Positions 12,006 through 18,869 of a stretch of 64,000 nt of DNA are shown in pieces (positions within the stretch are counted from its first letter, which is position 1; every line of letters starts with the position of its first letter). A model generated the notes under the pieces. The model saw only the letters and a list, made by a program, of their open reading frames with translations. It had not been told where the DNA came from and ran no database searches. A program made the position numbers and the translations under genes. Location: NCBI RefSeq assembly GCF_041886205.1, contig NZ_CP169029.1. One strand, given 5' to 3'. The DNA is from Escherichia coli. GTDB taxonomy: Bacteria > Pseudomonadota > Gammaproteobacteria > Enterobacterales > Enterobacteriaceae.

Positions 12006-12899
<894 letters not shown>

Positions 12900-12945
12900 T
12901 TACCTCATCAATCGCTTGTTGTTATATGTTGTGTTGTGCACATCT

Positions 12946-12977
12946 ATCCATTTAGACGTCCAGATGTAAAGATGAAG
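12946..12977 (-). promoter_or_regulatory. Tandem met-box (MetJ operator) repeats upstream of metF
   Basis: agacgtcc agatgtaa agatgaag: three consecutive 8-mers resembling the AGACGTCT consensus, about 50-80 bp upstream of the metF start. Confidence 0.6.
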
Positions 12978-13307
12978 GAAAAGCCGCAGGGCGTCAACCG
13001 AAAAATGACCACTGATGGTGAGGAAAAATCAGGGAAGTTGAAATTTTTTCATCTGAAGAAAAAAACAGGGATACCAATGTTCAGTATGAGGTGAATATTG
13101 GGAAAATGCTGACGTTATTAATTTTATATTTATTTAAATGATGATTCATTCTGATTTATTTACTTAAAAAATGAATTATATTTTCAAATAAAACAAAAAG
13201 ATACTTTAAGCCTCTCCGGCCTCCTCGCTTTTAATTTTGAACCACTTCAAACAAATAATAAATTCCTAAGAATTAAGTTGCAGACAAATTATACATCCCT
13301 CACGATA

Positions 13308-13335
13308 AGTAGAACGTTCTAGTAGAACGTTCTAC
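13308..13335. promoter_or_regulatory. Tandem palindromic operator-like site upstream of the PTS gene
   Basis: aagtagaacgttctagtagaacgttctact: two abutting copies of a palindrome centred on CG (TAGAACGTTCTA); the second copy is a perfect 16-bp palindrome AGTAGAACGTTCTACT; lies about 55 bp upstream of the PTS start codon. Confidence 0.5.
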
Positions 13336-13389
13336 TTATATAAATAATCGTTCTTGCGCAGTCATCTGCGCTATTCGGGGGAAATCAGC

Positions 13390-14889
13390 ATGGGTCTGAT
13401 ATCGAGTGTCGTAAAATCACTTTCTAAACTGTCGATGATTGGTCGCGCGCTGATGCTGCCAATTTCGCTTCTGCCTGCCGCCGGGTTGTTACTGGCGTTC
13501 GGCGATAAATTCCACATGCCGTTGATGATGAATGCCGGCGGTATCATTTTTGATAACTTGCCGATGCTTTTTGCTATCGGTTCTGCCGTGGGACTGGCTT
13601 CAGAATCGGGTATTGCGGCGCTATCCGCAGCTGTATCCGTCTTTGTCACTAATATCACCATCGGTACTGTCCTTGGCATCACACCAGAGATGGCCGGGCA
13701 AGGCGGTAAATATGCGATGGTGGTGGGGATCCCAACGCTGCAAATGGGCGTCTTCGGCGGCCTGATATGCGGGGTTCTGGCGGCGTGGTGTTACAACCGT
13801 TTTCATACCATGCAATTACCAGAATTCCTTGGCTTTTTCTCCGGCAAACGCTTCGTGGCTATCGCGACGGCTTTTCTTTCCTTCATCCTTGGCTTGTTAC
13901 TGCCCTATGTCTGGCAACATATTCAGTCGGGAATCGATGCCCTATCAGTTATCGTCAATGGTGATAACCAGGCGGCATCGACCTTTATTTTTGGTGTGAC
14001 AGAACGTGCGCTCATTCCGCTTGGCCTGCACCACATCTGGTATCCATCGTTCTGGTACTCTTTTGGTGATTACACCACCCAGGCAGGCCAAATGATCCAC
14101 GGTGACCAAACAATTTGGTTCAAAATGCTGGAAGAAGGTGTGAAATCGTTCAGTAGCGACAGCTACCATAACGCGGGTAAGTTTTTACAGGGCGAGTTTC
14201 CGCTCATGCTGTTCGCGCTGCCTGCGGCGTGTCTGGCGATGTACCATGAAGCACACACCAAAAATAAGAAAATTGCCGCCGGTATTCTGTTCTCTGCCGC
14301 ATTAACCTGTTTCCTGACAGGTATTACAGAACCCGTTGAATTTACCTTTATTTTCGTGGCACCGGTACTGTACGTATTTAACGCGATAATGGCTGGCCTC
14401 TCCTATATGGCGATGTATCTGCTCCATGCCCACATTGCAAAATCCTTCTCGGCAGGGCTTATCGATTATATTTCGTTTGGCATCCTGCCATCATTTAACG
14501 GCTACGAAACCAACTTCCTGAGTGCCATTATTGTTGGCGTACCGATGGCGATTATCTATTACTTCACTTTCCGCTTTGTTATTCGCCGTTTTGATGTGAA
14601 AACACCGGGTCGAGCCGAAAGCACTGTATCCGCTAACGATAAAACCGATGATGAACTGGCTACGGAAATTATCAGTCTGCTGGGCGGCCAACAAAATATC
14701 TCTTCCGTCGCATCCTGCATAACGCGCCTGCGTCTGGAAGTGGCGGATAAAGATGTGGTTGATAAAGATGGACTGAACAATGTCGGTGCTCGTGGTGTGG
14801 TTTTCGTCGGCGAGAACGGCATTCAGGTGATTTTTGGCGCACGTGCACAATTTATCGCGCAAACCATGTCGACGATGATTGGCAAATAG
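13390..14889 (+). CDS. PTS glucose-family EIICB permease (substrate unknown)
   Basis: ORF-track entry 13354..14889; start placed at ATG 13390 (GGGGG 8 nt upstream). Multi-TM EIIC domain followed by an EIIB domain with the phospho-Cys motif SVASCITRLRLEV. Confidence 0.8.
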   Translation: MGLISSVVKSLSKLSMIGRALMLPISLLPAAGLLLAFGDKFHMPLMMNAGGIIFDNLPMLFAIGSAVGLASESGIAALSAAVSVFVTNITIGTVLGITPEMAGQGGKYAMVVGIPTLQMGVFGGLICGVLAAWCYNRFHTMQLPEFLGFFSGKRFVAIATAFLSFILGLLLPYVWQHIQSGIDALSVIVNGDNQAASTFIFGVTERALIPLGLHHIWYPSFWYSFGDYTTQAGQMIHGDQTIWFKMLEEGVKSFSSDSYHNAGKFLQGEFPLMLFALPAACLAMYHEAHTKNKKIAAGILFSAALTCFLTGITEPVEFTFIFVAPVLYVFNAIMAGLSYMAMYLLHAHIAKSFSAGLIDYISFGILPSFNGYETNFLSAIIVGVPMAIIYYFTFRFVIRRFDVKTPGRAESTVSANDKTDDELATEIISLLGGQQNISSVASCITRLRLEVADKDVVDKDGLNNVGARGVVFVGENGIQVIFGARAQFIAQTMSTMIGK

Positions 14890-14962
14890 TCATAAGATTA
14901 CGCTTTGTTGGAGGTTCTGGTCCCTGACTGGAACCTTCGTGCTTATTGTTCAGGGAGTGAAT

Positions 14963-15979
14963 TTGAAGAAAGTCAGCATAATTGATGTTGCCAAAAGCGC
15001 AGGAGTCTCAGTCTCTACTGTGTCGCTGGTCCTGCGCCAGAAAGGCAAAATTTCCGAGGCAACCATCGAGAAAGTTCATGCTGCCATTACTGAGCTTGGC
15101 TACGTGCATAATGTTGCCGCCGCCAATTTACGCTCCAACACTTCAAATCTTATCGGTCTGATTTTACGTGATTTTAGCGATAGCTTTTCCATCAAAGTGA
15201 TGGCAAGTATTGTTCAGGAACTGGAAGCACAAGGATATATGGTGTTCCTCGGGCAACCACAAAACGAGCATGAACATCTTGAACGCTGTTTGCTTTCCTT
15301 CAAGCAACAAGGTGTTGCCGGAGTGATTTATCTGGCTTCCGATGCGCAGCGTGAAACCTTACCTGGGCTGATTCGCCAGTGCCCTCTTCCTCTTGTCGTC
15401 ACCTCACAATCCCCCATCAAAGATGAATGCAATCTGGTATTGCGCGACAACCAGCAGGCGGCAAGCCTTGCCGCGCGTTATTTAATTGAGCGTGGACATC
15501 GTTACATTGCCTACCTCGGCGGCAGAGAAAGCGATCTTATCCGCCAACAGCGACTGGTGGGTTTTCGCCAGACCCTGGCAAAATTCGGTATTGCCAGTCG
15601 TGACGAGTTCACGCCAGCCTGTGACGATGATACATACGCCGCCAGCATGGCCACGCGCCAGTTGTTGGAGAATAACAATGCTATCACCGCCCTACTCTGC
15701 CATTCGCCCGAGGCCATGATTGGCAGCATCAACGGCATACATCAGGTGGGGCGCACCGTCGGGAGAGACATCTTTCTGACCCAGCAGGTGGCGCTAATTG
15801 GTTTTGAGGATATGCTGCACATCAACCTGACCTCTCCCGTTTTCACCTATGTCTCTTCCGCCAGTGAAGAAACCGGACGCCAGGCCGCTAATCTGATAAT
15901 CCGCAAATTAAAAGACCCGGAGCTGCAAATTCAAAGAATTGCGCTTTCGGGGCAACTGGTAGTGCGGGAATCGGCGTAA
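14963..15979 (+). CDS. LacI/GalR-family transcriptional regulator
   Basis: ORF-track entry 14879..15979; N-terminal HTH KKVSIIDVAKSAGVSVSTVSLVL followed by a periplasmic-binding-protein-like effector domain; start tentatively TTG 14963 (AGGGAG 5 nt upstream), start codon uncertain. Confidence 0.75.
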   Translation: MKKVSIIDVAKSAGVSVSTVSLVLRQKGKISEATIEKVHAAITELGYVHNVAAANLRSNTSNLIGLILRDFSDSFSIKVMASIVQELEAQGYMVFLGQPQNEHEHLERCLLSFKQQGVAGVIYLASDAQRETLPGLIRQCPLPLVVTSQSPIKDECNLVLRDNQQAASLAARYLIERGHRYIAYLGGRESDLIRQQRLVGFRQTLAKFGIASRDEFTPACDDDTYAASMATRQLLENNNAITALLCHSPEAMIGSINGIHQVGRTVGRDIFLTQQVALIGFEDMLHINLTSPVFTYVSSASEETGRQAANLIIRKLKDPELQIQRIALSGQLVVRESA

Positions 15980-16052
15980 TACAAATGCCGAATGAGATGT
16001 ACGTCGATATCGTCATCCGGCAATAAGGTGTAAACCAACTTAATGCGTATGA

Positions 16053-17606
16053 TTACTTGATATCCTTCACGCGCATACCGTTGAGCTGTTCATCCGTGAT
16101 GGTGTTACCCGCTTTGAAGTAATCAACCACGGCGTGATAAACATAATAACCGCCGGTTGTGTTGCGCGCCTGACCCTCGGTAAATGCGGTAAAACCATCT
16201 CCACCATCAGCAAGGAAACTCTGGGTGGCAATAGAATAAACTGTCGCATCTTCAATGGGTTTGCCATTCAGAGTCAGTGTGATTACCCGCTGACCAACCA
16301 GTTTGCTGCTGTCGTACTTCATTTCCAGGCCTTTCGATACCTGTAAAACGCCATTACTTAAACTTGCGCCGTGTTCCATCAAACTGCGTAATTGTTTACC
16401 CGTGAGTTCCATCGTCACCAGTTCGTTGGGGAACGGGAAGGTACTGATGACGCCGCCCATCGTAATCGCCCCTGCGGGGATCTCATTGCGAATACCACCA
16501 GAGTTGGTTAACGCCAATTGGGTGTTTTTACCCGCCGCTACCAGTAAAGCGTCCGCCGCCAGGTTCCCGAGGGAAGCCGATTCACCATAGGCACGTTTTA
16601 ATTCAACCGGCGACTGCGCCACCGTTTGTTGCACCACTTCATCAAGCTTTTTATTCCAGCCGTCGATTACCTGTTTCGTTTGCGGATCGGGCTTCCACTC
16701 GTCGGCGTAAATGGTTTTAAGCTCGAAGTTTTTCACCGTAAAATCATGCGGCTTCTCTTTGTAGTCGAGAACCAGTTTGCCCACATCAATCCCGCCGCTG
16801 TCAGTGGAAAGGATGAGTGTATTGCCGACTTTAATCGGTTCCGGCGTACCCACATGTGCATGTCCGGTGATCAAAATATCCAGCCCTTTCACCTGACTTG
16901 CCGTCTGGATATCTTTATCCAACGCGCGACGCACATCCGTGCCTCCCATACTGGACTGGCGGGCCGGAACACCTTCGTGGATCAGGGCGACGGTTAGATC
17001 AACCTTGCCTTTGAGTTCATCGATATAACGTTGTAGCCATTTAATTTCATCGCGCGCTTCAATACCCACGCGCGTGGCAGCAGATACCGTATCGTTGAAG
17101 GCAAATACGCCGTGCAAACCTATAACGCCAATTTTCACGCCGTCTTTTTCGATGATGGTATATGGCTTATCCCAGAATGATTTACTGCTGTTCTGATAAA
17201 AAACATTGCCCTGCACAATAGGGAATTTTGCCTGACTCAACTGTAATAATGTGTTGTCCCAGCCGTGGTCAAATTCATGGTTGCCTATCGTGACGGCATC
17301 AAACGGCATAGTATTCATAATATCGATAATAGCCTTACCTTTGGTCAGGCTGCTGATATAGGGCCCGGTAAAATAATCACCCGCATCAAAAAACCATGTC
17401 GCTTTATTTTTTGCTTTTTCTTGCTTAACCAGCGTAGTGATATTTGCCCAGCCGCCAATATCCCGTTTACCGTCAGCGATCCACGGCACTTTATAAGGCT
17501 CGACATGCGCATGGAGGTCGTTGGTATAAATGATGGTGACATCTTTGGCGCAAGCCCAGAACGGCAATGTTAATGCGATACCCGCAGCAAGTATTTTAAT
17601 TTTCAT
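16053..17606 (-). CDS. Secreted bifunctional metallophosphoesterase / 5'-nucleotidase (UshA-like)
   Basis: 517-aa ORF with signal peptide [20 protein letters not shown]; calcineurin-like motifs DLHAH, GDYF, GNHEFD, GHAH, then a 5'-nucleotidase C-terminal-type domain. Confidence 0.75.
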
Positions 17607-17738
17607 AAATAGTCCCTTTCAGTGATTTAAAGGATTGCTACATTACGTTCTGAAAGAGTTATTTATGTGAGAGTAATCACATCCGCAGGGGATAGTTGCC
17701 GGACAAAATCAACGACCTTGTGAAATCGTTGGTGATAT

Positions 17739-18869
17739 ATGTCGACTCTGTTTACGATTAATGCCTGCAAGTCGTTTGGTTGCCGTAATTTAGGGCAACC
17801 AACATCGACAGATTACAGCTGGCCAGACTATCGACTGGGTTATCCGGCACTGCACTGTCGGGCATGTGGAAGTTACCCGCCTTTGTTTGACGAACAGCAA
17901 TTTCGTGACTGGCTGTCAGTTCACTTATCTACTTTTGCAACTGAGAAAGGTCATTTCTGCCCGGTATGTTATGGCACAAAGACGATTTGTTATGGCCACA
18001 ATCCACAGGGGTCGCAACGCATTCAATGTCGTAACTGCAAAAAAGTCTGGACACCTAAACAATATCAGAAAGAAATAACGCCTCCTGAAATAATCGAAAC
18101 GGTTGCTCTTCTGGTGCCATTTCAGGGAGCCAGCAATGGGCAGAAACTGTATGTTTTAATCAGTTTTGATGCTCTTCGCGGTAATATTCTTCATCTTTCT
18201 ACTAATTACACGCAGCATCAGGCTGGAGAAAGTCTGCATTATCGATACAGAGGAAATGCAGAACCAGAGTTACACGAGAGTAATATTGTACAACGCGTTG
18301 ATATGCGCGAAGCACAATTTCTACGCCGCAGTCAGTTTGATGAAATTCAGTATGGCAGCGCAGCGCTCAAACGCAATGCTAAAGGTGTTATTCTGCGTCC
18401 GGTTATCACTGCACACGGGCATTTCAGAGTACTGAATATTTTATTCCCTACAGTAAAAACACATGTAATTTCACACGAGTGTTTTTTAAGAGGTGCCATT
18501 ATTACGGCATGGGCTGATCTTTTTCGCCAACAGCAAGGTGAGATTTGGTTTATTGAAGAGGAAATAGCTGACTATACCGATAATATGCCCTGGAGTTTTC
18601 AGGGAACAACTTATCACGGCTGGTGGAAAAATCAGTGGCAACTTTGGGTTCAGGGCAAAAATCGTAAAATGGTATGTGCATTAACAGGCGGAAATAACAG
18701 CAAAGCTGAAATGCTCTCTTTCGCAACCAGCAGACATTTTATCGACTGGCTACATAAACAAGCAGTATTTACTCACAGCACCCCGCTTTCCGCAGGGCGC
18801 GTTACGCAAATACTGCTTTCTCTGGCTCAGGATTACAACAACTGCGCCAGCCGGTTGATATCCGACTGA
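17739..18869 (+). CDS. Hypothetical protein with N-terminal Cys-rich zinc-ribbon-like motifs; function unknown
   Basis: 376-aa ORF; four CxxC pairs in the first ~100 aa (HCRACGS, CPVCYG, CRNCKK); lower GC than neighbours; 3' end overlaps the metL 3' end by 37 bp on the opposite strand. Confidence 0.5.
   Translation: MSTLFTINACKSFGCRNLGQPTSTDYSWPDYRLGYPALHCRACGSYPPLFDEQQFRDWLSVHLSTFATEKGHFCPVCYGTKTICYGHNPQGSQRIQCRNCKKVWTPKQYQKEITPPEIIETVALLVPFQGASNGQKLYVLISFDALRGNILHLSTNYTQHQAGESLHYRYRGNAEPELHESNIVQRVDMREAQFLRRSQFDEIQYGSAALKRNAKGVILRPVITAHGHFRVLNILFPTVKTHVISHECFLRGAIITAWADLFRQQQGEIWFIEEEIADYTDNMPWSFQGTTYHGWWKNQWQLWVQGKNRKMVCALTGGNNSKAEMLSFATSRHFIDWLHKQAVFTHSTPLSAGRVTQILLSLAQDYNNCASRLISD

Follow-up and report, generated by a model that had tools for sequence, protein, structure and literature searches.

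NUC, a 517-residue protein encoded within the window (the whole 64-kb stretch of DNA analysed here), is most likely an enzyme of catabolite-controlled periplasmic nucleotide-to-nucleoside scavenging, which is an ordinary and largely known role. We consider it likely that NUC is a Sec-exported periplasmic dimetal 5'-nucleotidase which forms a two-gene module for CRP-controlled nucleotide scavenging together with its neighbour HYP, and that the PTS/LacI gene pair on its other side is independent of this module. The protein itself is already known: its structure has been public since 2009 and its locus has been described. The substrate range and physiological purpose given below are those that we infer.

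In the mechanism that we propose, the functional unit would be NUC plus the divergently transcribed HYP, and this module would have long resided between metL and metF in many Enterobacteriaceae and have been lost from K-12-like E. coli. Under cAMP-CRP control, NUC would hydrolyse those nucleotides that reach the periplasm, yielding nucleoside and phosphate. The freed nucleosides would then be taken up. In ~660 E. coli genomes the module is extended by two more nucleotidases and a Tsx-like channel. The PTS EIICB and MalI-like pair has inserted into this variable slot in a few genomes. The features on which this proposal is built are listed in Table 1.

Table 1 Features of the NUC locus and of the neighbouring cassette, in positions of the window.
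Feature	Position	Strand	Basis or remark
12-bp palindrome TAGAACGTTCTA, present twice in tandem, 56-80 bp before the PTS ATG	13310..13334		Presumed operator for the LacI-type repressor
Rare PTS+LacI insertion, as compared with strain C4 (common short form)	13044..16032		blastn break-points against C4 and K-12
PTS EIICB permease, glucose family, 499 aa (RefSeq start); separate module	13390..14889	+	Pfam PTS_EIIC + PTS_EIIB
MalI-subfamily LacI-type repressor, 338 aa (RefSeq start); separate module	14963..15979	+	NF007449, 319.7 bits against a cut-off of 310
NUC+HYP module, common to ~1840 E. coli genomes, absent from K-12	16033..18831
NUC, periplasmic two-domain 5'-nucleotidase, 517 aa	16053..17606	-	Ortholog of E. 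coli CFT073 c4898 (PDB 3IVD/3IVE)
NUC signal peptide, residues 1-20, predicted cleavage between ACA and KD	17547..17606	-	Read from sequence; PDB construct start; orthologs
Divergent control region common to NUC and HYP, 132 bp	17607..17738		Alignment of 14 loci from several genera shows strongly conserved blocks
Perfect CRP consensus core TGTGA-N6-TCACA	17666..17681		Centre 67.5 bp from NUC ATG and 65.5 bp from HYP ATG
Inverted repeat CAACGA-N10-TCGTTG (invariant ACCAACGATTT ... GGTCG) beside the HYP start	17710..17731		Invariant alignment columns; flagged as hairpin
HYP, conserved divergent partner, 376 aa, annotated 'cytoplasmic protein'	17739..18869	+	Putative: two Cys4 Zn ribbons (IS1 InsA type) + RNase H-like/DDE-transposase-like fold

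NUC has the domains and motifs of a 5'-nucleotidase

The NUC ORF starts with ATG and spans exactly 16053-17606 on the minus strand, and the RefSeq annotation of the 100%-identical strain wlxctx60 contains the same gene. Pfam assigned a Metallophos domain (PF00149, E 2.4e-12) to residues 24-252 and a 5_nucleotid_C domain (PF02872, E 4.3e-38) to residues 334-477. The metallophosphatase motifs are NDLHAH (29-34), DAGDYF (74-79), GNHEFD (108-113), IHEG (209-212, with H210) and GHAH (248-251), and those of the C-terminal domain are R338, NSGGIR (368-373), FPFPN (390-394) and a 10-residue stretch (463-472, F464...GGDGF). All of these are unvarying across the 14-sequence family alignment and align with their counterparts in vertebrate ecto-5'-nucleotidases (snake-venom and CD73 enzymes), including R338, NSGGIR373, FPF392 and F464...GGDGF. 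The aligned residues comprise the His-Asp dyad of GNHEFD, the arginine of NSGGIR and two phenylalanines, one from FPF and one from the 463-472 motif. We take the arginines (R338 and that of NSGGIR) to bind phosphate and the phenylalanine pair to clamp the base, as assigned from published UshA and CD73 structures.

The AF2 model of NUC (pLDDT 83.5) was matched by Foldseek to 3IVD with a TM score of 0.90, to 2Z1A with an E of 1e-44 and to CD73 and UshA with an E of ~1e-40. Dimetal domain, C-terminal substrate-binding domain and overall fold all place NUC in the 5'-nucleotidase / UshA-CD73 superfamily, and its dN/dS of 0.03-0.05 indicates purifying selection. The initial annotation had described a secreted UshA-like metallophosphoesterase with a 5'-nucleotidase C-terminal domain; signal peptide, dimetal motifs and 5_nucleotid_C are indeed all present.

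Judged by profile scores, NUC is a distinct paralog of UshA and not its ortholog. We used the curated equivalog cut-off of 600 bits for the bifunctional UDP-sugar hydrolase/5'-nucleotidase (NF007109) as the threshold for UshA orthologs, and NUC reached 151.2 bits, in two stretches. Like UshA (E. coli b0480), NUC has a two-domain architecture, the metal ligands, the His-Asp dyad and a (predicted) periplasmic location (Foldseek E 4e-40 to 1USH), but it is only ~20-22% identical, is ~30 residues shorter and differs in locus and regulation. Some RefSeq records label NUC 'bifunctional UDP-sugar hydrolase/5'-nucleotidase' despite the sub-cut-off score. The RefSeq names 'UDP-sugar hydrolase' for NUC and 'Mal regulon regulator MalI' for its LacI-type neighbour are over-specific.

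Across residues 19-517, NUC is 98% identical to the protein of PDB entries 3IVD and 3IVE, with eight substitutions in the mature part. These structural-genomics deposits of 2009, entitled 'Putative 5'-Nucleotidase (c4898) ... in complex with Uridine / Cytidine', contain uridine (3IVD) and cytidine (3IVE), ligands that reveal nucleoside binding and do not tell which phosphoester is cleaved. The c4898 protein of CFT073 is in practice the same protein as NUC, from the same type of locus in the metL-metF region of ExPEC, although its allele differs at a few residues. The initial annotation had named close identity to a characterised enzyme of unrelated role as something that would refute its reading, and the 98% match to a protein already solved and named comes near to such an identity. 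Our literature search on c4898, 3IVD and 3IVE returned irrelevant papers and none on these structures; it likewise found no published biochemistry or enzymatic data for the NUC paralog, and for nucleotidase, tsx and UshA in uropathogenic strains it returned only the BEN2908 paper discussed below and canonical UshA reviews. The nearest solved relatives after 3IVD are the 5'-nucleotidase precursor of Thermus thermophilus HB8 (2Z1A, 28% identity) and vertebrate CD73 (24-26%), both of which have the NSGGIR, FPF and GGDGF substrate-binding motifs of NUC in otherwise distant sequences. Unlike NUC, CD73 is a GPI-anchored dimer with a role in purine/AMP signalling.

NUC would hydrolyse 5'-nucleotides to nucleoside and inorganic phosphate, to which the uridine and cytidine in the solved structure are an indirect pointer. 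It seems unlikely that NUC acts on another phosphoester, be it 3'-nucleotides or 2',3'-cyclic nucleotides (CpdB-like), NAD (NadN-like), cyclic dinucleotides, or sulfonucleotides such as APS, PAPS or PAP in concert with an arylsulfotransferase neighbour. The family is catalytically versatile, and the three paralogs of the long form of the locus (see below) imply divergent specificities; however, the 5'-nucleotidase-type C-terminal residues of NUC are intact, and among NCBIfam models it aligns best with the YfkN-type trifunctional enzyme, over the 5'-nucleotidase half (positions 629-1097 of 1174) and not the cyclic-phosphodiesterase half. The NCBIfam models of CpdB, NadN and SoxB do match NUC at similar sub-threshold scores, but the CpdB-type matches (NF006938, 102 bits against a cut-off of 486; TIGR01390, 100.5 bits against 883) are limited to the N-terminal metallophosphatase domain, that of NF006938 to residues 19-256. 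An arylsulfotransferase gene (PF05935) is adjacent in Enterobacter, Cronobacter, Pluralibacter, Silvania and Siccibacter, whereas the window and the metL-metF loci have none.

NUC is predicted to be exported to the periplasm

The N-terminus of NUC consists of a basic n-region (MKIK), a hydrophobic core and an A-x-A site (ACA before KD), and the PDB construct of the 98%-identical protein begins at residue 19/20, omitting residues 1-18/19. The Citrobacter ortholog reads WASA before KD; Cys19 of NUC is thus not conserved, which argues for a peptide of the signal-peptidase-I type and not for a lipoprotein. A lipoprotein reading of 'FWAC' was rejected, the residues at -2/-3 also being atypical for one. 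We predict that NUC is exported through Sec, processed by SPase I and released as a periplasmic protein.

NUC is common in E. coli and occurs in environmental genera

NUC is present in 1843 of 5426 complete E. coli genomes, about one third, including ExPEC lineages and Nissle 1917. A long form of the locus, which adds two paralogous nucleotidases and a Tsx-like nucleoside channel, was found in 659-761 E. coli genomes (~660), Nissle among them; with its three paralogs and channel, it suggests an expanded nucleotide scavenging that K-12 lacks. The locus of the CFT073/BEN2908 type is this long form, whereas the window holds the short form together with the PTS/LacI cassette.

The same chromosomal slot has been described as GR31 (metL..metF) of APEC BEN2908 and other ExPEC (PMC12928451, PLoS One 2026), where ORF 431 (1554 bp) is the counterpart of NUC. 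The ORFs tabulated for GR31 include Tsx and three UshA-like proteins, for which its authors propose, on purely bioinformatic grounds, nucleotide/nucleoside processing and transport; the 376-aa partner, the CRP site and the PTS/LacI variant are not mentioned in the parts of that report that deal with GR31 (PMC12928451).

The enrichment of NUC in ExPEC/B2 and Nissle-type strains would be accounted for if NUC were a host-interaction enzyme, which turns the extracellular ATP/AMP of the host into adenosine (or depletes eATP) and so modulates inflammation, as do Staphylococcus AdsA, streptococcal S5nA/Nt5e and mammalian CD73. NUC belongs to the same superfamily, has the conserved CD73-type substrate clamp and occurs in Nissle and in many human and avian isolates, and the module is reported, in the GR31 part of that study, as a region common to ExPEC model strains (PMC12928451). 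Nevertheless, we regard such a role as very unlikely. NUC is predicted to be periplasmic and carries no surface anchor, the ligands of the solved structures are pyrimidine nucleosides, and the predicted CRP site suggests nutritional control. Moreover, the module is kept in the environmental and plant-associated genera Kosakonia, Phytobacter, Rahnella and Superficieibacter, which favours a general metabolic role over host interaction.

The periplasmic arylsulfotransferase (PF05935) recurs beside NUC in six loci, and simple nucleoside scavenging leaves this neighbour unexplained. Two other possibilities were considered and rejected. The NUC+HYP module does not appear to be a transposon: 16033-18831 is bordered by neither inverted nor direct terminal repeats, and the junctions of the K-12, C4 and window forms are not homologous to one another. 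Neither NUC nor HYP had a PADLOC match that would indicate a defence role.

HYP is the conserved partner of NUC

HYP adjoins NUC divergently, at a distance of ~133 bp, in all 29 close ortholog loci (~13 genera), and the order metL-HYP/NUC-...-metF recurs in 18 of these, from eight genera. In the window, the final 37 nt of HYP overlap the 3' end of metL. Remote HYP relatives (24-28% identity) also adjoin nucleotidase paralogs in Providencia, Serratia, Salmonella arizonae and Enterovibrio. From gene neighbourhood, the conserved partner of NUC is HYP and not PTS/LacI, and a dN/dS of 0.08-0.17 indicates that HYP, too, is under purifying selection.

The intergenic region contains a CRP core that is the sole exact match in the 64-kb window (0.05 expected), and more than 20 ortholog loci, from many genera, have an exact core in the corresponding place. 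CRP would activate the NUC module via this predicted site. The inverted repeat next to the HYP start is a candidate operator or 5'-UTR hairpin. A promoter scan stayed below the level expected from shuffled sequence and revealed no credible promoter for NUC, and a search of the region for riboswitches and sRNAs gave no Rfam match at E <=1.

In hhalign, HYP residues 71-106 matched residues 5-41 of InsAB' with a probability of 90% (E 1.4e-6). PF03811 was matched by 13 of 22 members of the HYP family (best E 1.5e-6), the HYP of the window itself lying below the cut-offs. The HYP profile gave nothing significant against PDB sequences; the leads on its nature come from fold comparison and hhalign only. 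The hallmarks of a mobile IS1 element were absent from HYP: it has no flanking inverted repeats, occurs at a single, fixed locus in each E. coli genome and is syntenic across genera.

We infer from this arrangement that HYP may regulate NUC, although it could be irrelevant to expression. More specifically, and only tentatively, HYP could be a domesticated IS1-like transposase, which keeps Zn ribbons and an RNase H-like core, is present in single copy, does not move and evolves under purifying selection. It could have been co-opted to serve the genes of periplasmic nucleotidases as their dedicated DNA-binding regulator or in some other obligate capacity. Its site of action would be the CAACGA...TCGTTG repeat beside the CRP site, in a partnership that extends from Escherichia to Providencia, Serratia and Enterovibrio. 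A strictly conserved partner of apparent transposase descent and a conserved CRP site would together offer a concrete handle on the regulation of NUC.

The PTS and LacI-type genes form a separate cassette

NUC, initially annotated as convergent, faces a LacI-family gene that ends at 15979, leaving a gap of 73 bp. The initial annotation saw no standard operon in this linkage, and NUC is indeed not in an operon with PTS/LacI: since the genes are convergent, the two share no transcript. No convincing intrinsic terminator was found between them. The PTS permease scored 562 bits against TIGR02002 (cut-off 591.8), and the LacI-type gene was always downstream of the PTS gene in the loci seen. Exact TAGAACGTTCTA occurred only in cassette-bearing loci, including those of Atlantibacter, Pantoea and Enterobacter, always ~60-70 bp upstream of the PTS gene, and no copy was found near NUC.

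The PTS+LacI pair was found in 8 of the 5426 complete E. coli genomes. In all eight the cassette sits in the slot of NUC, and only comparison with other genera rules out linkage in that direction: Atlantibacter, Enterobacter and Pantoea have the cassette at unrelated loci (folD/cysS or exbBD) without a nucleotidase. Among the NUC-selected loci, drawn from 100,044 species genomes, the pair shares the metL-metF slot with NUC in three (Escherichia sp., E. whittamii and Klebsiella spallanzanii). Variable cargo lies between PTS/LacI and NUC in GF4-3, Escherichia sp. MOD1 and K. spallanzanii, and one strain has intact PTS/LacI genes beside mere remnants of NUC and HYP. Census, lone cassettes, operator position and convergent orientation thus all speak against NUC belonging to an operon or regulon with PTS+LacI. 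By these comparisons the pair is an autonomous cassette with its own inferred operator and is not functionally tied to NUC, and its adjacency to NUC is a rare chance product of the variable slot between metF and metL, in which cargo is swapped.

The placing of NUC in a 'sugar-uptake island', as had been done initially, does not stand, and the conserved CRP core of NUC and the restriction of TAGAACGTTCTA to the PTS gene argue against the co-regulation with the PTS genes that this framing entailed. Of the suggestion that NUC releases a sugar or nucleoside in the periplasm for uptake, the nucleoside part fits the linkage to a Tsx channel in the long form, whereas distribution and operator position contradict the feeding of the PTS permease. 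That NUC is a periplasmic UDP-sugar/nucleotide-sugar hydrolase whose freed sugar enters via the adjacent EIICB, both under the LacI-type repressor, is already largely refuted by distribution (1843 against 8 genomes) and has very little probability left, even though UshA-family enzymes are able to hydrolyse UDP-sugars, uridine is the ligand of 3IVD, and the genes are close together in the window and share a slot in the three loci above: NUC scores below the UshA equivalog cut-off, and cargo, NUC remnants, lone cassettes, gene orientation and operator position count against it as well.

The cassette resembles malI-malXY of E. coli K-12 in combining a glucose-family EIICB, a MalI-subfamily repressor and a palindromic operator. 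It differs in that its genes are co-directional (PTS, then repressor), in having no MalY, and in that its PTS protein matches the GlcB/PtsG models more closely than MalX.

NUC is a structurally known paralog of UshA

The window comes from an E. coli chromosome. Its segment 12000-19000 matches strain wlxctx60 at 100% identity, in which the gene order is katG, metF, PTS EIIC, 'malI', metallophosphatase/5'-nucleotidase, hypothetical protein, metL, metB and metJ. The initial annotation had placed the nucleotidase gene (NUC; 517 aa, ATG-initiated, minus strand) exactly. It had also claimed calcineurin-like metal motifs and a 5'-nucleotidase C-terminal domain, and we indeed found both (Pfam Metallophos, E 2.4e-12; 5_nucleotid_C, E 4.3e-38). 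The phosphoesterase motifs (NDLHAH 29-34, DAGDYF 74-79, GNHEFD 108-113, IHEG 209-212 and GHAH 248-251) and the substrate-binding motifs (R338, NSGGIR 368-373, FPFPN 390-394 and one at 463-472) are unchanged across a 14-member family alignment and line up with those of ecto-5'-nucleotidases. The claimed signal peptide is borne out as well: the N-terminus reads as a classical Sec type with a predicted cut before KD. It is unlikely that NUC is a lipoprotein, because the Cys at the cleavage site is not conserved among orthologs (in Citrobacter, WASA precedes the cut and KD follows it). NUC is under purifying selection (dN/dS 0.03-0.05).

Residues 19-517 are 98% identical to PDB 3IVD/3IVE, released in 2009; 3IVD is titled 'Putative 5'-Nucleotidase (c4898) from Escherichia coli in complex with Uridine' and 3IVE is the Cytidine counterpart. 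An AlphaFold model of NUC (pLDDT 83.5) superposes on 3IVD with a TM of 0.90, and its next nearest structures are Thermus 5'-nucleotidase 2Z1A (28% identity), CD73 and UshA. The UshA-like enzyme class proposed at the outset is right. NUC reaches 151 bits against UshA, below the 600-bit equivalog cut-off, which indicates a paralog and not an ortholog; scores against the CpdB, NadN and SoxB models fall far under each cut-off. Among NCBIfam models, NUC aligns best with the YfkN-type trifunctional enzyme, in its 5'-nucleotidase half (positions 629-1097 of 1174).

We found no paper on the biochemistry of c4898/NUC in the literature searched. The part of the 2026 genome paper on APEC BEN2908 that covers the metL..metF region (GR31) lists a Tsx-like ORF and three UshA-like ORFs, for which its authors suggest nucleoside processing and transport by bioinformatics alone (PMC12928451). 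The novelty of NUC is therefore low, since the protein is structurally known and the locus already described.

NUC and HYP form a conserved divergent pair

Synteny was compared over 75 loci from one-genome-per-species contigs. In all 29 loci with a nucleotidase of 71% identity or more, the partner gene HYP lies on the opposite strand ~133 bp upstream. The genera represented include Escherichia, Citrobacter, Klebsiella, Kosakonia, Phytobacter, Pseudocitrobacter, Pluralibacter, Rahnella, Silvania, Superficieibacter, Atlantibacter, Enterobacter and Kluyvera. Because the pair occupies the metL-metF slot in 18 of the 29, across 8 genera, it is an old resident there, lost from K-12-like lineages, and not an island specific to E. 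coli. More distant HYP relatives (24-28% identity) adjoin nucleotidase paralogs in Providencia, Serratia, Salmonella arizonae and Enterovibrio.

Features of the NUC locus and the neighbouring cassette
Feature	Position	Strand	Remarks
NUC	16053-17606	-	ORF from ATG; Pfam Metallophos + 5_nucleotid_C
HYP	17739-18869	+	376 aa; always divergent from NUC
Predicted CRP core TGTGAGAGTAATCACA (TGTGA-N6-TCACA)	17666-17681		midway between the NUC and HYP ATGs
Invariant inverted repeat ACCAACGATTT-N5-GGTCGTTG (CAACGA...TCGTTG)	17710-17731		directly 5' of HYP start codon
Two tandem 12-bp palindromes TAGAACGTTCTA	13310-13334		56-80 bp upstream of PTS start

Conservation across genera is strong in the 132 bp between NUC and HYP. 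Its predicted CRP core is the sole exact match in the 64-kb window (0.05 expected by chance). Its centre lies 67.5 bp from the start codon of NUC and 65.5 bp from that of HYP, and more than 20 ortholog loci of many genera have an exact core in the corresponding place. The inverted repeat has no known match and may be an operator or a hairpin in the leader. A simple promoter scan of the region was uninformative.

HYP is annotated only as 'cytoplasmic protein', and no Pfam family scores over threshold. The protein has two Cys4 ribbons, built from eight invariant Cys, and the second ribbon aligns with the zinc ribbon of IS1 InsA (hhalign probability 90%); PF03811 matches 13 of 22 family members, and the predicted fold is RNase H/DDE-transposase-like. 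The gene is single-copy and syntenic, shares its last 37 nt with the stop region of metL, is under purifying selection (dN/dS 0.08-0.17), and has neither terminal repeats around it nor a defence-system match. HYP is read here as a transposase-derived protein that has taken on another role, plausibly in DNA binding and regulation. Such a strictly conserved protein, with its CRP-containing control region, is the one mildly interesting by-product here.

HYP identity to the window copy falls into classes in E. coli (at least 95% in ~1170 genomes, 80-90% in 570, 60-80% in 97), unlike NUC, which exceeds 90% everywhere. HYP of the long-form locus (L009), a form present in ~660 genomes, is 76% identical in protein, and the divergent class may correspond to this locus. 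In ET201 (L086 6240-8147), IS1 has created a natural HYP knock-out with NUC intact.

The PTS/LacI cassette is independent of NUC

The initial annotation had set NUC in a 'sugar-uptake island'. This setting is wrong. Among 5426 complete E. coli genomes, NUC occurs in 1843 and HYP in 1841, versus 8 for the PTS+LacI pair and 6 for all four genes in the arrangement of the window. (Two of the ~1840 matches to NUC and HYP are plasmid-borne, not chromosomal.) The PTS/LacI insertion is delimited to 13044-16032 by strain C4, which has metF, NUC, HYP and metL without PTS/LacI. Aminotransferase, alanine racemase and pseudo-SHMT genes separate the LacI gene from NUC in GF4-3; an internal deletion fuses NUC and HYP remnants in 2018-05-2CC (L005 7527-8231), with PTS/LacI intact; and in Escherichia sp. 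MOD1-EC7003 and Klebsiella spallanzanii the cassette adjoins metF, with other cargo before NUC. PTS orthologs (86-89% identity) with a LacI gene lie at folD/cysS in Atlantibacter and Enterobacter and near exbBD in Pantoea, with no nucleotidase close by. Exact TAGAACGTTCTA is confined to cassette-bearing loci, always ~60-70 bp 5' of the PTS gene, and travels with the cassette in one or two copies in every genus examined; none occurs near NUC at any locus searched. Taken together, the loci without nucleotidase and the TAGAACGTTCTA distribution indicate that the cassette is self-contained and self-regulated. This autonomy and the convergent orientation argue against co-regulation with NUC. The closeness of the two is incidental, and a supply of sugar by NUC to the PTS permease is strongly disfavoured.

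NUC likely acts in nucleoside scavenging

The intact 5'-nucleotidase active site, nucleoside-bound crystal structures, predicted export and predicted CRP site point to a scavenging role: NUC would be exported to the periplasm and there hydrolyse nucleotides, under catabolite control, to nucleosides that are then taken up. Modulation of host purinergic signals or action on other phosphoester substrates is possible, with less support. The long form, which 659-761 E. coli genomes carry, Nissle 1917 among them, adds two further nucleotidase paralogs of 516 and 539 aa together with a Tsx-like nucleoside channel of the outer membrane. E. albertii, Citrobacter and Enterobacter have related clusters.

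An arylsulfotransferase of periplasmic type (508 aa, PF05935) is repeatedly the neighbour, in varied arrangements, of a NUC paralog or of NUC/HYP at six loci (L006 4043-5569, L007 8615-10141, L014, L026, L035 and L054) of Enterobacter, Cronobacter, Pluralibacter, Silvania and Siccibacter. Nucleoside scavenging fails to account for this neighbour.

The metF-metL slot is a cargo hot spot

Some genomes carry two HYP/NUC modules on separate contigs: E. coli SCPM-O-B-8794 (L010/L032), Escherichia sp. MOD1-EC7003 (L011/L013) and Citrobacter sp. wls619 (L016/L033). One module is a short form in the metL-metF slot; in the other, nucleotidase paralogs and the Tsx-like gene lie 3' of NUC, a gene order different from that of the CFT073/BEN2908-type long form.

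K-12 has 200 bp in place of the 5788 bp at 13044-18831. The metF-metL gap (12897-18832) is a cargo hot spot (L002, L003, L004, L005, L009, L011, L017 and L022), and its left junction, after ...CAGGGAAGTTGAAA at 13043, is identical in all forms. There are at least seven fillings: the 200 bp of K-12; NUC+HYP; NUC+HYP with two paralogs and the Tsx-like gene; and ones with PTS/LacI added, with aminotransferase/alr/SHMT added, with a CMD-like gene and LysR, or with other ORFs (Escherichia sp. MOD1). The cargo between NUC and metF varies; in Citrobacter, for example, it includes a carboxymuconolactone-decarboxylase-like gene and a LysR gene.
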